A stretch of DNA of 64,000 bases. Origin: Minisyncoccota bacterium. Lineage in GTDB: Bacteria > Patescibacteriota > Minisyncoccia > Phycocordibacterales > SBAW01. The translations under genes were made by a program, and so were the position numbers. The DNA lies in contig DASZWM010000002.1 in the NCBI GenBank assembly GCA_035546615.1, positions 61,661 through 125,660 of the forward strand, written 5' to 3'. Positions within the stretch are counted from its first letter, which is position 1. Every line of letters starts with the position of its first letter. Positions 4,464 to 47,254 of the stretch are shown here, in pieces. The notes under the pieces were generated by a model. That model had not been told where the DNA came from. It saw nothing but the letters and a program-made list of their open reading frames with translations, and searched no databases.

Positions 4464-4500
4464 AAGAGGGCGCGCCGTACGGCGCGCCCCGCTTCGTTTT
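4464..4500. terminator. bidirectional rho-independent terminator
   Basis: Perfect palindrome gggcgcgccgtacggcgcgccc (4468-4489) followed by cgcttcgtttt; lies between convergent genes. Confidence 0.6.
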
Positions 4501-7041: not shown

Positions 7042-8118
7042 TTGTTATATACTGGCTTCATGGCAAAGGGCTCCAAGGAAGAAATCGCTGCGCCTATGGC
7101 GCTGTATCGCAAATACCGGCCTTCCGGCTTTGCGGAAGTGCGCGGGCAGGAAGAGGTCGTTTCGGTCCTTGAGGCCGCTATAAAGAAGAACGAAATCGCG
7201 CACGCCTACCTTTTCTCCGGCGGGCGCGGCACCGGCAAGACCTCGATGGCGCGCATTTTGGCCCGCGCGGTCGGGACCAGCGAGCAGGATATCTACGAGA
7301 TGGACGCCGCATCCAACCGCGGTATCGACGAGATACGCGAGCTTCGCGAAGGTGTCTCGACGATGCCGTTCGATTCCAAATACAAGTTCTATATCATCGA
7401 CGAGGCTCACGCGCTCACCAAAGACGCCTGGGGAGCGTTTCTCAAGACCCTTGAGGAGCCGCCGGCGCACGCGATATTCGTGCTTGCGACGACCGAGCTC
7501 GACCGCGTGCCCGAAACCATCCAGTCGCGCTGCCAGGTGTTCCGTTTCAAGAAGCCCAGCCACGAAACGCTTAAGAAGCTCGTCCTCGATGTAGCCAAGA
7601 AAGAAGGCGTCGCGCTTGCGCCCGCAGGTGCGGAGCTTGTCGCTTTGGTAGGGGAAGGCTCGTTCCGCGACACACTCGGCACGCTCCAGAAGGCGCTTAC
7701 GATTTCGGAAGACAAGAAACTGACGGAAGAGGAGATAGCGAAGGTAATTGGTGCGCCATCGGCCGGGCTGGTAAATAATTTTATCTCGGCGCTTGCCCAG
7801 AAAAATATAGACGACGCGCTTGCCGCCTTCTCGGCCGCGGTAAAAAACGGCTCGGAGCCGCAGATATTCATCTTGCTCGCCGTTGCGAAAGTGCGCGGGA
7901 TATTGCTCCTGCGCTTTGCCCCCAAAATGCGCGGAGAGCTTGCCGAGCAGTTCGGCGAGGACGATATGAAGCTGCTTGAGTCGCTCGCAAAGGGCGAGGG
8001 CGCAAGCATTAACTCCCAAACCCTGGCAGAATTCCTGACCGCGCTCATTGAAACTCCGCGCGCTCCGCTTCCGACTATTCCGCTGGAGCTTGCTCTGTAC
8101 CGCCTCTTCCAACAATAG
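7042..8118 (+). CDS. dnaX: DNA polymerase III subunit gamma/tau (short form)
   Basis: 358 aa; YRKYRP, Walker A GGRGTGKTS, DEAH box; start may be the internal Met at 7060. Confidence 0.9.
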   Translation: MLYTGFMAKGSKEEIAAPMALYRKYRPSGFAEVRGQEEVVSVLEAAIKKNEIAHAYLFSGGRGTGKTSMARILARAVGTSEQDIYEMDAASNRGIDEIRELREGVSTMPFDSKYKFYIIDEAHALTKDAWGAFLKTLEEPPAHAIFVLATTELDRVPETIQSRCQVFRFKKPSHETLKKLVLDVAKKEGVALAPAGAELVALVGEGSFRDTLGTLQKALTISEDKKLTEEEIAKVIGAPSAGLVNNFISALAQKNIDDALAAFSAAVKNGSEPQIFILLAVAKVRGILLLRFAPKMRGELAEQFGEDDMKLLESLAKGEGASINSQTLAEFLTALIETPRAPLPTIPLELALYRLFQQ

Positions 8119-9230: not shown

Positions 9231-9303
9231 TGCCCGATCGTCTAATGGTAGGACAGAGGCCTTTGAAGCCTTTAATTGGGGTTCGAATCCCTGTCGGGCA
9301 GCA
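9231..9303 (+). tRNA. tRNA-Gln (anticodon UUG)
   Basis: Cloverleaf by hand: U1:A72 acceptor, anticodon loop cuUUGaa, T-loop UUCGAAU; CCA not encoded. Confidence 0.75.
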
Positions 9304-9525
9304 AATGTAGCGAAGCGTAATTTGCGCCCGAAGGAAGCAATGGGATTGCTTCCGGCAGGGATTCGAAAGCCGGAGCGGGACCCGCATCAGCAGATGCGGG
9401 AGCGAGGCAGGGTCGTGCGGCTAAAGTTGCGACGGCAACTTTAGAACGCCTGACCGAATCCCTAAGAAGTTTCTAGTTTTCTCTGTCTCTAGGCAGAATC
9501 ACTTTTTGATGGTAAATCTGTCCTG

Positions 9526-11199
9526 ATGCCGTATTCGACTGATATGTCAGTGTATTTAGATTTGGGCGGCGCTTTAGCTGCTTTTGGCCTTTTATTTACT
9601 GTTTACCAACTTCGGCGACCAAGGTGGGAGGTAATTTTGCGAATTAGAAATAATTGGCAAAGTGATATTTTCTGGATATTAGGTTTTATAGGTTTGTTTT
9701 ATGCCCTAGTTGGCGTGCTTGTATCTGAACTCCCAATTAATTCTTTCAACTTTCCGTTTAATACCCCATTACTTTACGAGGTGGCAGCGTACCTATCGTT
9801 TGTAGCTTCACCTCTGTCATTAATATATTTTGCGACCAATGACAAAAAGTTATTTAACGCAAAAACTGCAGAAACTTTCTACGAAGTAATCTTGCAAGAA
9901 ATTTCTAAATCTAGTGATGTAAACCTAGATGCGGCATTGGAAATAGTCTTGAGAAACTTTAATGAAATTTGTGATGCAACTCTTCAAAATACAGATAAAG
10001 ATTTGCGCTCATACGCAAGGTCAATTTTAGACGTTGTACTAAGTGACGAGTCTGTAGTAAAAGTGCTCACTACCAAGAGGCTTGATGCTTTGCAATATAT
10101 CTTTTATTTAATAAAGGAAAAGAATATCACTCGTGCTCATTCGGGGATAGGTATACCGAGAATTGTAAATAATCTTTTCTTTGACGAAAATTCCTTCCTC
10201 TATAAACAACTCGATAGAAAAGGGTTGGCACTTTCATCAAATATATACACGAGCATTTTTGAATCTCCAGTTATACTCACCAACTTTGATCTGTTTGGGT
10301 ACCCGACTATCGGTTATGGAATGAGTAGAGATACTGGCAATGCTGGTATAAGAGTATTTATCAAAGCCTTATCTCTAAGCATTGAAACTTACTTTAAAAC
10401 AGGGAGCGTGCCTCCGAGGCACATTAATAATGGGTTGTCTTACTTAAGCAATATATTTGGAGGGTTGTGTGCAAAAATTGCCATCAAAGAAAATAAAGGT
10501 GTTGATACTAAATCTAGTTTAGAAGATGAGTGGTGGGGCTTACATCAAATAGCCTCCTTTTTAGGACATGATTATATTTTTCTTGCCTATGAAGAAAAAC
10601 TAAATCAGCAAGTTCTGGAAAACGAAAAAACTGCCCATGAGGCTCGATTTGGCTCAAATGCAACTATAAATGAGGGTATTGCAGCTGTTATCTATAAAGC
10701 TTTTGAGCAGCTTTCACAAATTAAAAAAACCACAGACATATATCATACAGTTCTGGAGCTCTTGCATGGAATGATGAATGAGCCTACCTACAAGGAAGGT
10801 TATAGACCGCCTTTTGAAAAGAGACTCTGGCAACAAATCGGTGCAAATGTTGCTAAACGTTATTATCCTGCCGTCGTTAGAACGTATTTAACCTTTGTTG
10901 GGTTCTGTCTTGGCGCAGATGCAAACCAACGACAAGGTTGGATTGGCGAACAAGCGGAACGTATGAGACGACTTTTGTATATTGACCTTAAGCCTTTATT
11001 TGATAAGAATGAAAAAATGATAAATAAGGAATTTATGAAAGACGTTTTGCTCCCAGATTCCATGTCCTATAAAGATGGTAAATTTACTTATACCTCTGGA
11101 TTCGGAGAAGGTACAACCACTGAAGTAGCACCACCCCCTGAGGGTGCGACATCAGGTTTGGAAGGAATAGATTTAGAGAGTATGCCTCACTTCGTCTAG
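9526..11199 (+). CDS. hypothetical membrane protein (3 N-terminal TM helices + ~450-aa soluble domain); AT-rich
   Basis: 557 aa ORF, GC far below flanks, no motif recognised. Confidence 0.6.
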   Translation: MPYSTDMSVYLDLGGALAAFGLLFTVYQLRRPRWEVILRIRNNWQSDIFWILGFIGLFYALVGVLVSELPINSFNFPFNTPLLYEVAAYLSFVASPLSLIYFATNDKKLFNAKTAETFYEVILQEISKSSDVNLDAALEIVLRNFNEICDATLQNTDKDLRSYARSILDVVLSDESVVKVLTTKRLDALQYIFYLIKEKNITRAHSGIGIPRIVNNLFFDENSFLYKQLDRKGLALSSNIYTSIFESPVILTNFDLFGYPTIGYGMSRDTGNAGIRVFIKALSLSIETYFKTGSVPPRHINNGLSYLSNIFGGLCAKIAIKENKGVDTKSSLEDEWWGLHQIASFLGHDYIFLAYEEKLNQQVLENEKTAHEARFGSNATINEGIAAVIYKAFEQLSQIKKTTDIYHTVLELLHGMMNEPTYKEGYRPPFEKRLWQQIGANVAKRYYPAVVRTYLTFVGFCLGADANQRQGWIGEQAERMRRLLYIDLKPLFDKNEKMINKEFMKDVLLPDSMSYKDGKFTYTSGFGEGTTTEVAPPPEGATSGLEGIDLESMPHFV

Positions 11200-11201
11200 A
11201 T

Positions 11202-11759
11202 ATGAATCCAAACATTTGGTTTTACACTTTTAGTACAGCAGCCCAAGTAATGGCGGCTTTGGCCGGTTTATTTGCAGTATTTGTTGTATATAAGATTCAA
11301 GATTTTAGTCAGCTTATAAAAGACGCCCGCTCTAGTCTGTCCCGGTTGATTCCATACAATTCAGCGAATACGGGCGGAGATACAATCTCTAAGCAGGAAG
11401 TATTAGATATGACTGATAGAGAATTGGTTACTACGCTTGCCGAGTTGTTAGTACTTGAGACATCTCAGAATGGAGCGTTCTTTAGCGGACATTCAGAAAC
11501 TATAGATGGCACAACGATAGCTGTAAACTCGAATACCTACGACTATTTCGCAGCCCTTGTTGATAAAAAGGAAAGAATACTAAAACGTCTGATTTTTGTC
11601 TTGGGTTTAAGTTTAGGAACTATTTGTGTTTGTCTAGTATCATTGGTGCTAATTGACGTGTTATCAAAGTTTGAGTGGTTTATTTGGATGTGTTTGGCTT
11701 TATTTATATACACCCTTTGGACAATCGGAATGGATATTTACAAGATAACCCTAGAGTAA
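11202..11759 (+). CDS. hypothetical membrane protein (1 N-terminal + 2 C-terminal TM helices)
   Basis: 185 aa; 2-bp gap after the upstream gene; AT-rich. Confidence 0.55.
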   Translation: MNPNIWFYTFSTAAQVMAALAGLFAVFVVYKIQDFSQLIKDARSSLSRLIPYNSANTGGDTISKQEVLDMTDRELVTTLAELLVLETSQNGAFFSGHSETIDGTTIAVNSNTYDYFAALVDKKERILKRLIFVLGLSLGTICVCLVSLVLIDVLSKFEWFIWMCLALFIYTLWTIGMDIYKITLE

Positions 11760-11768
11760 TCTTTCTCT

Positions 11769-12092
11769 ATGAAAGGAATAATTATCGAAAATAGTCTCAA
11801 AGACAAAAGTATTATCACCGAAGCTGAAATTATTCGAACTTGGGAAGATGGAAGTTGGAAGTTGCGGGAGGTAAAAGTTTCAACAGAATGGGCTGAAAAA
11901 TTTGGAGGATACTTAAATGATGGACCCTGGTATGTTCACTTTTGGGAATCCGACAGCGACGATGTACTAGTAGTATTTAAAGACAAAAGCTTCTGGATCA
12001 AACATTCGGACAAGAATACTTGGCAAGATGCTATTGCTCATGGAAAGTCGTTACATATACCCGTGGAGCAATTAGACTTTCCTATTGATTGA
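11769..12092 (+). CDS. hypothetical small acidic cytoplasmic protein
   Basis: 107 aa; 9-bp gap after the upstream gene; AT-rich. Confidence 0.5.
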   Translation: MKGIIIENSLKDKSIITEAEIIRTWEDGSWKLREVKVSTEWAEKFGGYLNDGPWYVHFWESDSDDVLVVFKDKSFWIKHSDKNTWQDAIAHGKSLHIPVEQLDFPID

Positions 12093-12130
12093 GATTTCGA
12101 TTTCTCCCTTTTATATTATATAATCAAGAT

Positions 12131-12514
12131 ATGAAGTATTTGCTAATCACGGCTTTATTTTTGGTTGTCTTTGTGTTTGCTACTCCAGCAAAGGCCGCAC
12201 CATTAACCCAATCCCAAGTAAATGCAATAATTACTATTATGCAGTCTTTCGGTGTAGATAGTGCTACGATTTTAAATATCAAAACAACACTCTCTAATTC
12301 GACTTCCGCTAAGGTAGAATCCGTCGTCAAAACTACTTTTAAAGGAGTTCCTACCTACGCACAAGTGAAAAGAGAGTTAGCAAAATCACGCAATAAGGAG
12401 GTGACTTATATGGAGAATGGATGTGTATACTCAATAAACCATTTAGTGAGTGAACATATTTTCAAAACACGCGATATGAGTATTCGCGATCTTGCATCTG
12501 GAGCAAGTTGTTAG
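12131..12514 (+). CDS. hypothetical secreted protein (signal peptide MKYLLITALFLVVFVFATPAKA)
   Basis: Track ORF starts at TTG 12089 overlapping the previous stop; ATG 12131 gives a classical signal peptide; AT-rich. Confidence 0.5.
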   Translation: MKYLLITALFLVVFVFATPAKAAPLTQSQVNAIITIMQSFGVDSATILNIKTTLSNSTSAKVESVVKTTFKGVPTYAQVKRELAKSRNKEVTYMENGCVYSINHLVSEHIFKTRDMSIRDLASGASC

Positions 12515-12557
12515 TGCTCCTTGGTGTATAAAGTTTAAAAATATAGTTAATCTTCTC

Positions 12558-13040
12558 TTACCCCCGTCGCGCCGCATCAATAGCGGCAACGTCGAGCTTT
12601 TTCATCGTCATCATCGCGTCAAACGCGCGTTTTGCCTCATCGCCGCCCTTGGCAAGTGCTTCGGTCAGCGTGCGCGGCGTTATTTGCCACGATACTCCCC
12701 AGCGGTCCTTGCACCAGCCGCACTCGCTCTCCTGGCCGCCGTTTCCGACGATGGCATTCCAGTAGCGGTCCGTCTCTTCCTGATCGTCCGTCGCTATCTG
12801 GAAGGAAAACGCCTCGCTTTGCTTGAAATACGAGCCGCCGTTAATGCCCATGCAAGGAATCCCGCAGACCGTGAACTCTACCGAGAGCACGTCGCCTTTC
12901 TTGCCCGACGGGAAATCGGCAGGCGCATGGAAGACGCCCGTTACCTTGCTGTCGGGGAACGTAGCGGCATAGAAATTCGCCGCCCCTTCCGCATCCTTAT
13001 CAAACCAGAGGCAAATAGTGTTTTTTGGTATCATATACAT
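12558..13040 (-). CDS. VOC family protein (PhnB-like / 3-demethylubiquinone-9 3-methyltransferase-domain protein)
   Basis: 160 aa; CLWFDKDAEGAANFY...CGWCKDRWGVSWQI matches the PhnB-like family. Confidence 0.75.
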   Translation of the reverse strand: MYMIPKNTICLWFDKDAEGAANFYAATFPDSKVTGVFHAPADFPSGKKGDVLSVEFTVCGIPCMGINGGSYFKQSEAFSFQIATDDQEETDRYWNAIVGNGGQESECGWCKDRWGVSWQITPRTLTEALAKGGDEAKRAFDAMMTMKKLDVAAIDAARRG

Positions 13041-13140
13041 ATATTTTATAGCACCTCAGGATAATCTACAAAATAAGCGGAGGCTCCGGAAAAGGCCCGA
13101 CATCGTCCCAGAGGATCCATCCTTTGCTATACTGGCCACT

Positions 13141-45025: not shown

Positions 45026-45484
45026 ATGCAACATAAAGTCCTACGCGGCTTCACATTGATAGAGCTTCTGGTCGTTATAGCTATAATAGGGATACTTTCT
45101 AGTATTGTATTAGCGGCACTCGGGAAGGCTAGGGACGGCGCACGCGATGCGCGACGTGTCAGCGAGCTGCGAAGCATAGTACAAACTCTATTCCAATTGG
45201 ATATAAACAATCCAAATCAATCGCTCGATTGTGATGGCAGCGGTTTTACAACTGGTTGTAATTACATCAGCCAGTATAAAGATCCTACCGGTACGCTGTC
45301 GTGCGTTGTATTCCCTCCTAGTTCTGCCCGTGTGTGTCAATACACTATTACAAGCCCTTCCGGAGGCACTATCACCAGTTCTAACTTCAAGGTATGTACC
45401 TATTTAGAGGTAGGTTCAGGGGGTTTGCCGAAAGGAAATATAAATATAAATAGCAGTACTTACACCCTTACCGCCGGCTGCTAG
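45026..45484 (+). CDS. type IV pilin / pseudopilin (prepilin-type N-terminal cleavage/methylation domain)
   Basis: 152 aa; GFTLIELLVVIAIIGILSSIVLAAL. Confidence 0.8.
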   Translation: MQHKVLRGFTLIELLVVIAIIGILSSIVLAALGKARDGARDARRVSELRSIVQTLFQLDINNPNQSLDCDGSGFTTGCNYISQYKDPTGTLSCVVFPPSSARVCQYTITSPSGGTITSSNFKVCTYLEVGSGGLPKGNININSSTYTLTAGC

Positions 45485-45492
45485 AATGGTAG

Positions 45493-45563
45493 TGGACCTG
45501 GCGAGAATCGGACTCGCGACTCGGCAATGCGAATGCCGCGTAATACCACTTTACTACAGGCCC
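45493..45563 (-). tRNA. tRNA-Ala (anticodon CGC), T-loop UCCGAUU
   Basis: Hand-folded cloverleaf GGGCCUG/CAGGUCC acceptor with G3:U70 Ala identity pair, anticodon loop UUCGCAU; C instead of U at position 55. Confidence 0.7.
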
Positions 45564-45655
45564 GCTGAGATTTTCTTAGCGTTCTGCGCCTTAGAAAATC
45601 CAAGTGCACTTGGTGCTACCAAGGTGCCTTTTATCAAAATGCGTGCAACCCAGTG

Positions 45656-45720
45656 TCGGGATGCCGAGAATCGGACTCGGGAGTCGGTTCTACGCACCGA
45701 CTCAATTCAAGAAATGCGCA
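45656..45720 (-). pseudogene. tRNA 3' fragment: anticodon stem with a 20-nt loop, T-arm (UCCGAUU) and acceptor 3' strand CAUCCCG+A
   Basis: Shares anticodon-stem and T-arm sequence with the tRNA-Pro 70 bp away; no adjacent 5' half. Confidence 0.4.
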
Positions 45721-45745
45721 CCCTTCTCAATTTTCAGAGGCTCTG

Positions 45746-45816
45746 TCGGAGTGCCGAGAATCGGACTCGGGTCTTACGCACCCGAAGCGCATGTAATACC
45801 ACTATACCACACTCCG
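45746..45816 (-). tRNA. tRNA-Pro (anticodon CGG), T-loop UCCGAUU, with a 16-bp extended acceptor helix (45739..45824)
   Basis: C1:G72 and A73 (Pro identity), anticodon loop UUCGGGU with G37; leader GGCUCUGU pairs with trailer ACAGAGCC. Confidence 0.7.
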
Positions 45817-45824
45817 ACAGAGCC

Positions 45825-45861
45825 TCCGATGGCCTACGTAATACCATTATACCACATCCCG
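45825..45861 (-). pseudogene. tRNA 5' fragment (acceptor CGGGAUG + D-arm GUAU-AAUGGUA-UUAC)
   Basis: Acceptor 5' strand is the exact complement of the 3' strand of the fragment at 45656..45720. Confidence 0.35.
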
Positions 45862-46018
45862 ACACTGGATTTCACAGGACTTTTTTGTGGTCACAAATCG
45901 AATTTTCTCGACAGAAAATTCGTTCGCGACCCCAGCTCGCGGTTTTGCAAGTGCAAAACATCGCTACGCTTTGCCCCCAGGCGTCCACTCTGCCGCAGGG
46001 CAAAGTGGACGTCCTGTG

Positions 46019-46092
46019 TGCACCCTGAGAGGCTCGAACTCCCGACCTCGCCCGTGTGAAGGGCGCGCTCTAGCCAACTGAGCTAAGGGTGC
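46019..46092 (-). tRNA. tRNA-Val (anticodon CAC)
   Basis: Canonical cloverleaf GCACCCU...UUCGAGC...AGGGUGC-A, anticodon loop UUCACAC. Confidence 0.8.
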
Positions 46093-46191
46093 GGTAGGAA
46101 CATCATAGCGGAAAAAGCGTATGCAGACTAGCGCGGAATTTTTTGGGACATAGACGGAAAGGAGAAAAAATGTTTGAATGGGGCATACAGC

Positions 46192-46264
46192 GGGCCCTTA
46201 GCTCATCTGGTAGAGCGCCTCATTTGCAATGAGGAGGTGACCGGTTCGATCCCGGTAGGGTCCA
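46192..46264 (+). tRNA. tRNA-Ala (anticodon UGC)
   Basis: GGGCCCUUAGCUCAUCUGGUAGAGC..UUUGCAA..UUCGAUC..AGGGUCC-A; G3:U70. Confidence 0.85.
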
Positions 46265-46279
46265 CAAAAGACAGAAATA

Positions 46280-46307
46280 CCTCCCCTGCGGGAGGTTTTC
46301 TGCTTTT
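46280..46307 (+). terminator. rho-independent terminator after tRNA-Ala(UGC)
   Basis: cctccc-ctgc-gggagg followed by ttttctgctttt. Confidence 0.6.
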
Positions 46308-46429
46308 GTGGAGGCTGCAGCCATGTCCTGCAAGTGCAGGACGGCGAGGCGGGGTCGAGAGGCGTTTTCGCGACGGCGAAAACGAATTCGTGACCATACA
46401 AGCATAAGTCTTAAAATTAAGATGCTAAA

Positions 46430-47254
46430 ATGAAGCCAATGGACTGGCTCAGCGGATTTTCCGTCCTTAACCCGCAGGGCGCGGTGGGGCTTGCCGAGCG
46501 CGGGCTCATGATCCACGCGGTCGAGTTCATGCTCATTGTCGCCATTCCGGTCTATATTCTTCTGTTCTTTTTTGCCTGGCACTACAGGGCGGGCAATAAG
46601 GAGGCGAAATACACGCCTGACTGGGAACACGCGAAGATAGACGAGCTTATCTGGTGGGCGATACCGTTTGAGATAGTCCTGGTGCTGGGCGCGCTCACCT
46701 GGACCAGCACGCACCAGCTCGCGCCTACTAAACCGCTTGAAGGAGGCCCGCCGCTTGTGGTCGAGGTAGTGGCGCTCGACTGGAAGTGGCTTTTCATTTA
46801 CCCGGAGCAGGATATCGCCACAGTCAATTACCTGCAGCTGCCGGTCGGCCGCCCCGTGCGGTTCGATGTCACCGCCGATGCGCCTATGAATTCGTTCTGG
46901 ATTCCGCAGCTGGGCGGGCAGATATACGCGATGACCGGCATGGTGAATTCTCTCAACCTGGTGGCCGACAGTCCGGGGACGTTCAAAGGGGGCTCCTCTA
47001 ATTACAGCGGCGAGGGCTTCGCGCAGATGAAGTTTTCCGTCGATGCGGTGCCGCCCGAGGATTTTGATGCGTGGGTCAGGGTGACGCAGGCCCGACCCGC
47101 CGCCTTAACGCTCGATACGTACCATACGCTTGAAGCCCAGAGTACCGTTAAAGACCCCGTGTACTATGGAGATGTGGACGAAGGCCTATACGATGCTGTT
47201 GTGGGCCAATTCATGGGCCACGGCGATTCGGGAGAAGAGGAACACAACCACTAA
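46430..47254 (+). CDS. cyoA: cytochrome o (bo3) ubiquinol oxidase subunit II
   Basis: 274 aa; signal/TM region and cupredoxin-like domain lacking the CuA ligands, typical of quinol oxidases. Confidence 0.9.
   Translation: MKPMDWLSGFSVLNPQGAVGLAERGLMIHAVEFMLIVAIPVYILLFFFAWHYRAGNKEAKYTPDWEHAKIDELIWWAIPFEIVLVLGALTWTSTHQLAPTKPLEGGPPLVVEVVALDWKWLFIYPEQDIATVNYLQLPVGRPVRFDVTADAPMNSFWIPQLGGQIYAMTGMVNSLNLVADSPGTFKGGSSNYSGEGFAQMKFSVDAVPPEDFDAWVRVTQARPAALTLDTYHTLEAQSTVKDPVYYGDVDEGLYDAVVGQFMGHGDSGEEEHNH

Follow-up and report, generated by a model that had tools for sequence, protein, structure and literature searches.

How does a complete transfer RNA (tRNA) gene come to lie between the two halves of another gene for the same isoacceptor, and what has become of the gene around it? 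The question is raised by a tRNA cluster in a 64,000-nucleotide (nt) stretch of DNA from a Minisyncoccota bacterium (contig DASZWM010000002.1, positions 61,661 to 125,660; hereafter the window), in which an intact tRNA-Pro(CGG) gene on the minus strand is preceded by the 5′ half and followed by the 3′ part of a second Pro-type tRNA gene. We define a nested tRNA gene of Patescibacteria, the candidate phyla radiation (CPR), as an intact tRNA with a 5′ half of the same isoacceptor upstream and a 3′ part downstream. Nesting of this kind recurs in other CPR loci, in up to three layers. With moderate confidence, we favour a reading in which a helix-flanked gene would have been inserted into a resident tRNA-Pro gene of the same isoacceptor, the inner gene working and the outer halves being relics.

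Anatomy of the nested tRNA-Pro unit

Read along the minus strand, the cluster consists of tRNA-Val(CAC), a structured trailing element, the nested tRNA-Pro(CGG) unit and tRNA-Ala(CGC). The parts of the nested unit, in the same direction, are:

45862–45875, minus: leader strand of the outer helix, GTGAAATCCAGTGT, pairing with 45643–45656 (inverted repeat I2)
45832–45861, minus: 5′ half of the outer tRNA-Pro, recognized from its sequence and from D-arm repeat family D3
45817–45827, minus: leader of the inner gene, the 5′ strand of its closing helix, GGAGGCTCTGT (inverted repeat I3)
45746–45816 (45745–45816 in the ARAGORN call), minus: inner, intact tRNA-Pro(CGG), called by ARAGORN and by Rfam at 55.6 bits (tRNA model RF00005, threshold 29 bits)
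45731–45745, minus: trailer of the inner gene, the 3′ strand of its closing helix, CAGAGCCTCT followed by GAAAA (I3)
45715–45723, minus: GGGTGCGCA, first partial copy of the anticodon-loop 3′ end and stem 3′ strand (junction alignment A2)
45681–45703, minus: extra hairpin of 8 base pairs (bp) in the outer 3′ part, GAGTCGGT-GCGTAGA-ACCGACTC (fold; repeat D6)
45656–45680, minus: outer T-arm CCGAG-TCCGATT-CTCGG, acceptor 3′ strand CATCCCG and A73 (repeat families D1 and D2)
45643–45655, minus: trailer strand of the outer helix, CACTGGGTTGCAC (I2), with UUUU 3 nt further

The inner gene has the acceptor stem CGGAGTG/CACTCCG, A73 and the T-loop TCCGATT, with C at position 55 (C55). The identity set of bacterial elongator tRNA-Pro (G72, A73, G35 and G36) is present, and proline is the predicted amino acid. 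Leader GGAGGCTCTGT and trailer ACAGAGCCTC combine with the acceptor stem in the two 20-nt arms of I3 (45734–45753 and 45810–45829), which are 95% complementary. An extended acceptor helix had been reported here by the first-pass annotation; we read it from the sequence as 18 bp, made of 7 acceptor pairs and 11 further pairs. The duplex of inner leader and trailer has an energy of -22.6 kcal/mol, against -9.9 kcal/mol for shuffled leaders.

The outer 5′ half is built of the acceptor strand CGGGATG, U8, the D-arm GGTATAATGGTATTAC, G26 and the anticodon-stem 5′ strand TAGGC, and is followed by a loop remnant, CATCGGA (45825–45831), which overlaps the next helix strand. The outer acceptor strands (45855–45861 and CATCCCG) pair with each other at 7 of 7 positions, and pairing between outer and inner strands reaches 6 of 7. 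The outer flanks extend the acceptor pairing by 14 positions (12 Watson–Crick pairs, one G-U pair and one mismatch), so that the 21-nt arms of I2 (45643–45663 and 45855–45875) are 90% complementary. Neither ARAGORN nor Rfam calls the outer pieces. Local alignment to the inner gene scores 16 for the 5′ half (shuffle maximum 12) and 24 for the 3′ part (shuffle maximum 15), and a scan for half-copies of tRNAs scores 18 on the 5′ side and 23 on the 3′ side.

The outer 3′ part is rearranged, being both duplicated and expanded. Its first partial copy, GGGTGCGCA, corresponds to a ‘GGT + stem’ junction found in other nested loci, and a second copy, TCGGTGCGTA (45691–45700), lies inside the extra hairpin and matches the stretch from anticodon to stem in the intact gene of L163 (L-labels denote the loci or contigs compared with the window). 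With that gene as reference, the outer 5′ half runs through TAGGC and the loop remnant, the outer 3′ part starts at TCGG-TGCGTA, from the anticodon on, and a 5-nt insertion, CGACT, creates the 8-bp hairpin. What the first-pass annotation had taken for a 20-nt anticodon loop is better described as two partial anticodon-3′ copies with this hairpin. Its proposal of a Pro-type tRNA gene split by a segment that holds the intact tRNA-Pro(CGG) stands; the length given for that segment, 86 nt, does not, the insert being ~100–110 nt and comprising the tRNA with its leader and trailer. The outer copy has no proper anticodon loop on its 5′ half, and its anticodon stem contains a G-G mismatch.

The real region holds two inverted repeats of at least 19/21, whereas 100 dinucleotide shuffles did not go beyond 16/21. 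The composite (45640–45880, minus) folds at -121.5 kcal/mol (z = -8.3).

Two gene-calling observations touch the same interval. Mechanical open reading frames (ORFs) of 180 and 151 amino acids overlap the cluster on the plus strand (45486–46059). On contig P0002 (JGI 3300056388), which has the same HYR-pilin-cyo synteny at 72% identity, a 176-amino-acid gene without a Pfam match is called at 1607–2137, between the prepilin gene and cyoA and on the strand opposite to both, the one that carries the tRNA cluster of the window; this gene is probably spurious, a cluster like that of the window underlying it.

Recurrence and age of nesting

A metagenome scan for two CPR-type D-arms 20–45 nt apart, with a diagnostic spacing of ~37 nt, returned 18 contigs with GC contents of 0.33–0.58. 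Most of them carry, in order, a 5′ half, a helix strand, an intact tRNA, a second helix strand and a 3′ part. A matching downstream 3′ part accompanies 13 of the 22 tRNAs on these contigs, though the scan selected for the 5′ side only. The genome and metagenome scans used exact patterns, so prevalence figures drawn from them are approximate and favour tRNAs that have this D-arm and T-arm. Three strictly nested layers occur in L129 (the sequence also found as L131 and L139) and in L143, and each layer carries a Watson–Crick acceptor signature of its own; in L129 these are CGGGGTA/TACCCCG, CGGGGTG/CACCCCG and CGGGATG/CATCCCG. Nesting is also present in loci that were not selected for it, namely in Pro (L050, L052, L081), Ala(CGC) (L009), Arg(CCU) (L039, with the break in the D-arm) and Leu(CAA) (L099) genes. 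The Gly(CCC) loci L130 and L133 have the 5′ half only.

The half-copies keep to their sides. In the half-copy scan of tRNAs, no 5′ half lay on the wrong side, and 3′ parts did so at most once per group. Both half-copies together were found at 0 of 206 beta-proteobacterial tRNAs and at 2 of 80 tRNAs in an unbiased CPR set, in which several more had one side. In this data set, pairing between leader and trailer is specific to tRNA-Pro, whose mean duplex energy is -12.5 kcal/mol (-8.3 kcal/mol with shuffled leaders); for the other isotypes, shuffling makes no difference. The junctions of many nests carry recurring motifs, GCA(C)TTG-CCCCG(C/T) on the 5′ side and CGGGG-T-R-R-A-GGT-stem on the 3′ side, which are found even where the tRNA bodies differ, and also in the Ala and Leu nests. 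These motifs are essentially confined to tRNA loci and are not dispersed repeats. The helix arms were considered as dispersed repeats too, and this was rejected: CCCCGCAC/GTGCGGGG occur almost only at tRNA loci, and GCACTTGC matches the window 4 times where 2.4 matches are expected, which is no enrichment.

In several nests, the outer layers bear extra GC-rich hairpins in the T-loop, the D-loop or the variable region, some with UNCG or GNRA loops (L140 at ~12230–12255; L142, minus view, 580–650; L138, minus view, 265–305; the D-loop of the outer Leu copy in L099), and one of these hairpins, CCCTGCCTGCCGGCAGGCAGGG, is perfectly palindromic. The orthologous loci L134 (1250–1405), L135 (4990–5120) and L146 (1020–1150) share a conserved stretch downstream of their nested tRNA-Pro, TTTGCTCGCTCGCCCCGCCTTCGGCGGG…TATTTCGGAATTAAATCG…GGACAAATTCAAATTCAG, with a UUCG-capped hairpin, which may be another small RNA.

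The age of the window’s nest can be read from relatives with the same gene order. The genes that flank the cluster (uvrA-like, uvrC-like, ddl, a HYR-repeat protein, a prepilin-type protein, cyoABCD and cyoE) are housekeeping genes in conserved order, and the CyoA homologues bear the names Parcubacteria, Paceibacterota and Adlerbacteria. The gene order of the window and the Val/Pro(CGG)/Ala(CGC) cluster are common to L069, L148, L149 and L163. The Ala(CGC) gene is 100% identical to that of L069, Pro(CGG) is 96% identical to that of L070, and the tRNA-Val(CAC) sequence is matched by eye in L148 and L149. By sequence and synteny, this tRNA cluster is native to a bacterium of the Patescibacteria (CPR).

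Halves are absent from L149 and L069, yet the leader ATCGGAAGCTCTGC and trailer ACAGGGTTTCTGAAAA of these relatives are homologous to the flanks of the window’s inner gene. A homologous leader is present in L149, L069, L163 and L117, and a homologous trailer, ACAGAGyyTCTGAAAA, in L069, L149 and L163. This homology with the flanks of un-nested relatives identifies the inner gene as orthologous to the normal tRNA-Pro(CGG). In L163 and L117 the intact gene has the acceptor strand CGGGATG, and it is this gene that the outer pieces resemble. Directly upstream of the leader in L163, at the same offset as in the window, lies a degraded 5′ half, TATTGTTATATTACAGTACGCCGTTCGG, which scores 14 against a maximum of 12 in 300 shuffles. 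This relic indicates that the nest is older than the split between the window and L163, whose CyoA proteins are 68% identical. Candidate degraded 5′ halves in the leaders of L069, L149 and L117 were not significant (p = 0.31, 0.37 and 0.85, respectively). Among the window and its syntenic relatives, the complete nest is found only in the window. The first-pass annotation had held that its reading would fail if the fragments were conserved identically at all homologous loci; they are polymorphic, with no halves in L148, L149 and L069 and a degraded 5′ half in L163.

Origin of the nested genes

In the insertion that we favour, a tRNA gene copy with a self-pairing leader and trailer would enter the anticodon region, or sometimes the D region, of a resident gene for the same isoacceptor. 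The insert would supply the same tRNA, and the event would therefore be tolerated in genomes with single tRNA gene copies; repeated insertion would give two or three layers. The inner tRNA would be released from the precursor by RNase P and 3′ processing, and the outer copy of the window could no longer decode. Its strands may be kept paired, in the 21-bp helix, either because unpaired relics would mispair with the working tRNA (the outer 3′ strand is able to pair with the inner 5′ strand at 6 of 7 positions) or because the strands are reused. Insertion with fast turnover is favoured over slippage by a set of comparisons. In the window and in L132, the outer leader and trailer are unlike the inner ones, the D-arm and T-arm being 94–100% identical in the window; in L009, the inner Ala(CGC) has a D-arm completely different from the outer one; L140 and L141 place the same two acceptor types in opposite layers around the same closing helix; and the orthologous loci L134, L135 and L146 are in three different states.

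One candidate for reuse lies in the outer D-arm:

45846–45854, minus: TGgTATAAT, extended -10 promoter-like site (promoter scan, 10/12 sigma-70 match with TG)

This consensus match stands 29 nt upstream of the inner gene, and the relic of L163 is flagged at the equivalent place (4473–4481, plus; TATATT with TG). The relic D-arm is perhaps reused as an extended -10 box for the inner gene. In this tRNA family, the D-arm (TG-G-TATAGT or TATAAT) resembles an extended -10 box by itself.

Several points weigh against insertion followed by decay. Compensatory double substitutions separate L137 from L145 in the closing helix, in the hairpin of the outer 3′ part and in the outer T-stem, and separate L132 and L140 from L141 in a variable-region hairpin. 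The window retains 7 of 7 acceptor pairs and 13 of 14 extension pairs in its outer helix despite the age of the nest. Such retained and covarying outer stems fit a functional outer RNA as well as they fit selection to stay sequestered. No enzyme or mechanism for the insertion was found, and no transposase, integrase or reverse transcriptase is encoded among the genes adjoining the window’s nest. Plain tandem partial duplications are present at L130 and L085, and 5′ halves are repeated in L137, which indicates that slippage also acts at these genes. The window’s helix is without the CCCCG/CGGGG clamp of the larger group and has only the ‘GGT + stem’ part, with a different helix sequence, and may accordingly not share its origin. 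As for the promoter, intact D-arms of the tRNA family match the -10 consensus too (for example, L117 at 7671–7679, minus), and a consensus match is weak evidence of a promoter role.

The covariation of the outer 3′-part stems, the outer T-stem and the closing helix between orthologous nests would also suit an unlikely alternative, in which the composite is one functional precursor, the outer layer being matured to a second tRNA or tRNA-like RNA and the intervening segment being a released tRNA. The full outer helix of an old nest agrees with it, as do the extra UNCG and GNRA hairpins, which sit in the variable region, T-loop and D-loop of the outer cloverleaf. In layer 2 of L129, in L132 and in L140, joining the remnants ATGG and GGT would restore exactly the loop ATGGGGT, with the junction at 35/36, the site that PMC13011429 reports for group I introns in Patescibacteria tRNAs. 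The window does not lend itself to such maturation, however: its outer 5′ half lacks a loop containing U33 and its anticodon stem is mismatched. Elsewhere, many junctions (ACTTG, CCCG) are incompatible with a 7-nt U33 loop and several form a continuous helix; outer anticodon stems have decayed in L009 and L132, and T-loops carry insertions in L140, L142 and L138. ARAGORN in intron mode gave no clean complete outer tRNA-Pro. Its calls at 22 loci were tried as evidence of splicing and rejected as inconsistent, being mostly outer-5′/inner-3′ chimeras or calls over a whole nest with odd anticodons, for example those of pyrrolysine (Pyl), selenocysteine (SeC) or Leu(UAA); over the window’s nest, it returned a chimeric call only. 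Rfam, searched at E values up to 10 over 45200–46500, gave no match to an intron, group I included, nor to a ribozyme, Y RNA or riboswitch, and the weak matches to tmRNA_permuted, RNAI and c-di-GMP were far below threshold. Bulge-helix-bulge geometry was not seen on inspection, by which kink-turn readings of the junctions were rejected as well. Cuts by RNase P and RNase Z would leave leader and trailer attached to the outer pieces, and we know of no bacterial pathway for trimming and joining outer tRNA pieces that bear them.

Two independent local tandem duplications, one of the leader with the 5′ part and one of the 3′ part with the trailer, arising by slippage or unequal crossing-over, would account for 5′ copies upstream and 3′ copies downstream with no insertion at all. 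Plain cases of such duplication are at hand in L130 Gly(CCC), in L085 Pro(CGG) and in a 49-nt unit repeated in L137, and a comparison of L134 with L135 shows that recombination between direct repeats removes pieces. We consider this origin improbable for the nests. Tandem duplication would copy the flanks, whereas the outer leader GTGAAATCCAGTGT and the outer trailer differ from their inner counterparts (CATCGGAGGCTCTGT; ACAGAGCCTCTGAAAA), flanks differ in L132 as well, the inner and outer genes of L009 are of different types, and the changes between outer and inner acceptor, leader and trailer are fully compensated. Junction motifs common to unrelated loci would not be expected either. The first-pass annotation had preferred leftovers of repeated site-specific integration or recombination at a tRNA hotspot; on this view, the fragments would be attachment (att)-site remnants of integrase-mediated integration and loss of mobile elements. 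tRNA genes are classic integration sites, and beside tRNA-Gln the same window has a stretch of low GC whose ORFs have no known function. Integration is nonetheless very improbable here and is not supported: no integrase or element DNA lies between the pieces in the window, where the insert is ~100 nt, and no integrase-bearing element of this kind was seen in L069, L117, L148, L149 or L163. The flanks are housekeeping genes in conserved order, and integration leaves a direct repeat of one end at the far border, not a 5′ half upstream with a complementary 3′ part downstream in a strictly nested arrangement; the pieces are not direct repeats of one att segment.

Least credible of all is that the C55-bearing Ala(CGC) and Pro(CGG) genes are foreign, derived from a phage or another element, or that the arrangement is an assembly artefact from repeated tRNA segments. 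The two genes share D- and T-arms, unlike the other tRNAs of the window, and the unitigs assembled from short reads of this organism stop at either edge of the cluster. These unitigs, L147 and L150 (Logan, SRR12170516, an independent short-read assembly), end inside tRNA-Ala(CGC) and tRNA-Ala(UGC), exactly at the cluster edges, as expected if internal repeats break the assembly graph; the internal order hence rests on the given assembly and on comparative evidence. Against an artefact, nesting is seen again in assemblies made independently by several pipelines, where sequences differ and helices are compensated, the nest junctions are not at repeat borders, and L163 retains its relic at the same site. 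Against a foreign source, which the first-pass annotation had offered as its other option and which we abandon, diverged relatives in syntenic CPR genomes keep orthologues of the same tRNA genes in the same order, and C55 is widespread in CPR tRNAs. Scans of a viral collection gave 0 matches to the nested double-D-arm pattern and 12 to the junction motif, all of them chance matches in high-GC coding DNA with no tRNA nearby. The T-arm pattern matched this collection 8 times, 5 of them within tRNAs (two Gln(UUG), two Ala(UGC) and one Gly(UCC)), and a half-copy scan of these T-arm matches found no nested unit.

The nests can also be set beside systems already known. Disrupted tRNA genes of archaea and some algae may be intron-containing, split, tri-split or permuted. 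Like them, the nested genes are interrupted, most often in the anticodon loop, have complementary acceptor strands and have flanks that pair beside the junction. In archaea, however, the splicing endonuclease recognizes a bulge-helix-bulge, and none is present at the junctions of the window, L129 and L132, which form an internal loop or a continuous helix, without two 3-nt bulges 4 bp apart. The nests differ further in having a bacterial host, in being interrupted by a complete gene for the same tRNA, in the several layers that are possible and, in the window, in an outer copy that yields no valid anticodon loop. They differ from a permuted tRNA gene in that the 5′ half lies upstream and the 3′ part downstream. 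Group I introns have been described in Asn and Asp tRNA genes of Patescibacteria, some at the unusual 35/36 site (PMC13011429); a term search of that paper gave no mention of tRNA-Pro, ‘nested’ or ‘pseudogene’. These introns share with the nests the phylum, the interruption of the anticodon loop (35/36 being readable in three nested loci) and the failure of annotation to find the gene; unlike them, the nests hold no ribozyme, and ~100 nt of insert include 71 nt of tRNA. tRNA copies at the borders of islands and prophages are likewise fragments beside an intact copy, but they are direct repeats of one end bounding a kilobase-scale element with an integrase, whereas here there is no element and the pieces come from both ends, are complementary and are nested. 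Rickettsia palindromic elements and the GC clusters of yeast mitochondria are small palindromes tolerated in genes; they carry no gene cargo and lie scattered over the genome. In several nests, the outer layers resemble them in bearing GC-rich hairpins within the RNA genes of an AT-rich genome, and differ in having helix arms only at tRNA loci and a whole tRNA gene as cargo. Bacterial Y RNAs (YrlA) consist of a tRNA-like module on a long stem, and a tRNA-shaped domain on a long helix of 5′ and 3′ flanks is seen here as well; the inner molecule, unlike that of YrlA, is an ordinary tRNA-Pro in full, anticodon arm and identity elements included. For YrlA there was no Rfam match, and no Ro-type (Rsr) gene among the flanking genes, to which the scan was confined. 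The first four of these systems each share one aspect with the nests and each fail a defining feature that was tested, be it ribozyme, bulge-helix-bulge, integrase and element, or dispersal. Full-text literature searches, of incomplete coverage, found no description of a tRNA nested within a tRNA, and nesting with up to three layers in CPR bacteria does not seem to have been described so far.

The surrounding cluster and its meaning

The other features of the locus are:

46018–46092, minus: tRNA-Val(CAC), first gene of the minus-strand cluster (ARAGORN; Rfam 61.9 bits), with the canonical T-loop TTCGAGC
45867–46019, minus: structured element, copy A (the ‘hairpin array’), ~150 nt (fold; alignment A3; nhmmer E = 2.5e-36)
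45569–45613, minus: spacer with the palindrome CCAAGTGCACTTGG, terminator-like and followed by ATTTTCT, and a 9–11 bp hairpin GATTTTCTTAG...CTAAGAAAATC (I16)
45493–45563 (45492–45563 in the ARAGORN call), minus: tRNA-Ala(CGC) (ARAGORN; Rfam 61.6 bits), with G3:U70 and the T-loop TCCGATT (C55)
46192–46265, plus: tRNA-Ala(UGC), the fourth tRNA gene of the locus
46264–46406, plus: structured element, copy B (nhmmer E = 1.3e-39; A3; inverted repeat I1 with copy A)

The first-pass annotation described the three minus-strand tRNAs as intact, and ARAGORN and Rfam (55.6–61.9 bits) call all of them, Ala(CGC) and Pro(CGG) included. The identity elements that it listed, G3:U70 in Ala and C1:G72 with A73 in Pro, are likewise read from the sequence. 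The same holds for the T-loop TCCGATT in Ala(CGC), Pro(CGG) and the orphan 3′ part, and for TTCGA-- loops in the remaining four tRNAs of the window, Val among them. The spacer between the outer 3′ part and Ala(CGC) is weakly structured (z = -1.8).

Of all tRNA modifications, pseudouridine 55 is described as the most universally conserved (PMC7912444). Ala(CGC) and Pro(CGG) depart from the universal T-loop U54-U55-C56, and Val has U55. Outside the pattern selection, C55 was found in 12 of 69 CPR-like tRNAs (17%), of several isotypes, and in 1 of 168 tRNAs (<1%) of the beta-proteobacterial loci. Among orthologues, position 55 switches between U and C: it is C in Pro and U in Ala of L148, and U in Pro and C in Ala of L069 and L117. 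Given this switching and the frequency of C55 in CPR tRNAs, C55 is, on sequence comparison, a lineage trait of these tRNAs and no defect. An exact-pattern scan for the T-arm, with one genome per species, gave at least 120 loci. Among the matches listed, 33 in genome loci are tRNA-Ala(CGC), tRNA-Pro or tRNA-Gly, mostly from metagenome-assembled genomes of Patescibacteria, with a few from DPANN archaea. Also among the matches listed (L001–L120), 71 are tRNA-Thr(GGU) of Gallionellaceae and other beta-proteobacteria, in which the same UCCGAUU T-loop is near-invariant (for example, L004 of Ferrigenium straubiae and L062 of Ampullimonas aquatilis); the other tRNAs there have U55 in 167 of 168 cases. 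C55 is thus tolerated in many CPR tRNAs and removes the site of the modification described as most conserved, which raises a testable question about T-loop/D-loop architecture and TruB in Patescibacteria; literature searches on TruB in this group gave nothing usable.

The hairpin-rich spacer noted on the 5′ side of the nest is a structured element in its own right: 159 nt (45862–46020, minus) fold at -79.8 kcal/mol (z = -7.9). Copy A comprises a long hairpin H1, a small three-way region with H2 and a long hairpin H3 closed by GGUCG...UGACC. Copy B stands directly after tRNA-Ala(UGC) and before cyoA (46430), in inverted orientation to copy A. Alignment A3 joins copy A with four others, namely copy B and these copies from relatives, which also follow tRNA-Ala(UGC):

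L163, 3628–3783: element copy
L108, 3392–3540: element copy
L148, 1590–1743: element copy

Column identity in A3 is 72%, and RNAalifold predicts 54 pairs, and at 32 of them both partners have changed with pairing preserved. A search with nhmmer found more copies, full or partial:

L071, 820–968: copy after Ala(GGC)
L071, 2696–2775: copy between Val(CAC) and Pro(CGG), placed as copy A is in the window
L082, 809–870: copy after Pro(CGG)
L167, 1186–1392: two tandem partial copies

The genes downstream of the element vary (cyoA, a short-chain dehydrogenase, a small ORF), so that the element goes with the tRNA. A coding reading was rejected, as the apparent short ORF lies in different frames across the copies in A3. 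The element is a conserved structure trailing tRNA genes in this CPR clade, not debris, and no Rfam family matches it. Its first hairpin in copy B, ACCTCCC-CTGC-GGGAGGT (46279–46296, both strands), between tRNA-Ala(UGC) and cyoA, is flanked by an A-run and a T-run and resembles a bidirectional terminator. Elsewhere in the window, just downstream of tRNA-Gln(UUG) (9231–9302), GC content falls to 0.38 over 9231–13100, against ~0.58 in the genome; the five ORFs at 9526–13064 have no Pfam match, and the stretch looks like an island acquired beside a tRNA gene.

What, then, does nesting mean for these bacteria? tRNA genes interrupted by their own full copy, in up to three layers, stand outside the known repertoire of introns and split and permuted genes. 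Annotation mishandles them, giving chimeric intron-mode calls and placing ORFs and gene calls across the cluster. Besides the insertion that we favour, a bolder possibility, which we hold to be doubtful though worth stating, is either that the nests are a self-propagating, tRNA-only cassette or that the outer layers function through a new pathway of tRNA maturation. A selfish cassette would enter the resident gene of its own tRNA, take over the function of that gene and so recreate its target, which would explain the Russian-doll layers and the shared CCCCG...CGGGG ends. Functional outer layers would mean that CPR bacteria can mature a tRNA that has another tRNA as its intervening sequence. 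Either reading, if true, would define a new class of interrupted bacterial tRNA gene. Very small CPR genomes keep and rebuild these nests, some of whose stems are held by covariation, which suggests either that insertion is an active process directed at tRNA genes or that the nests have a role at the RNA level, in precursor folding, processing or the supply of a promoter.

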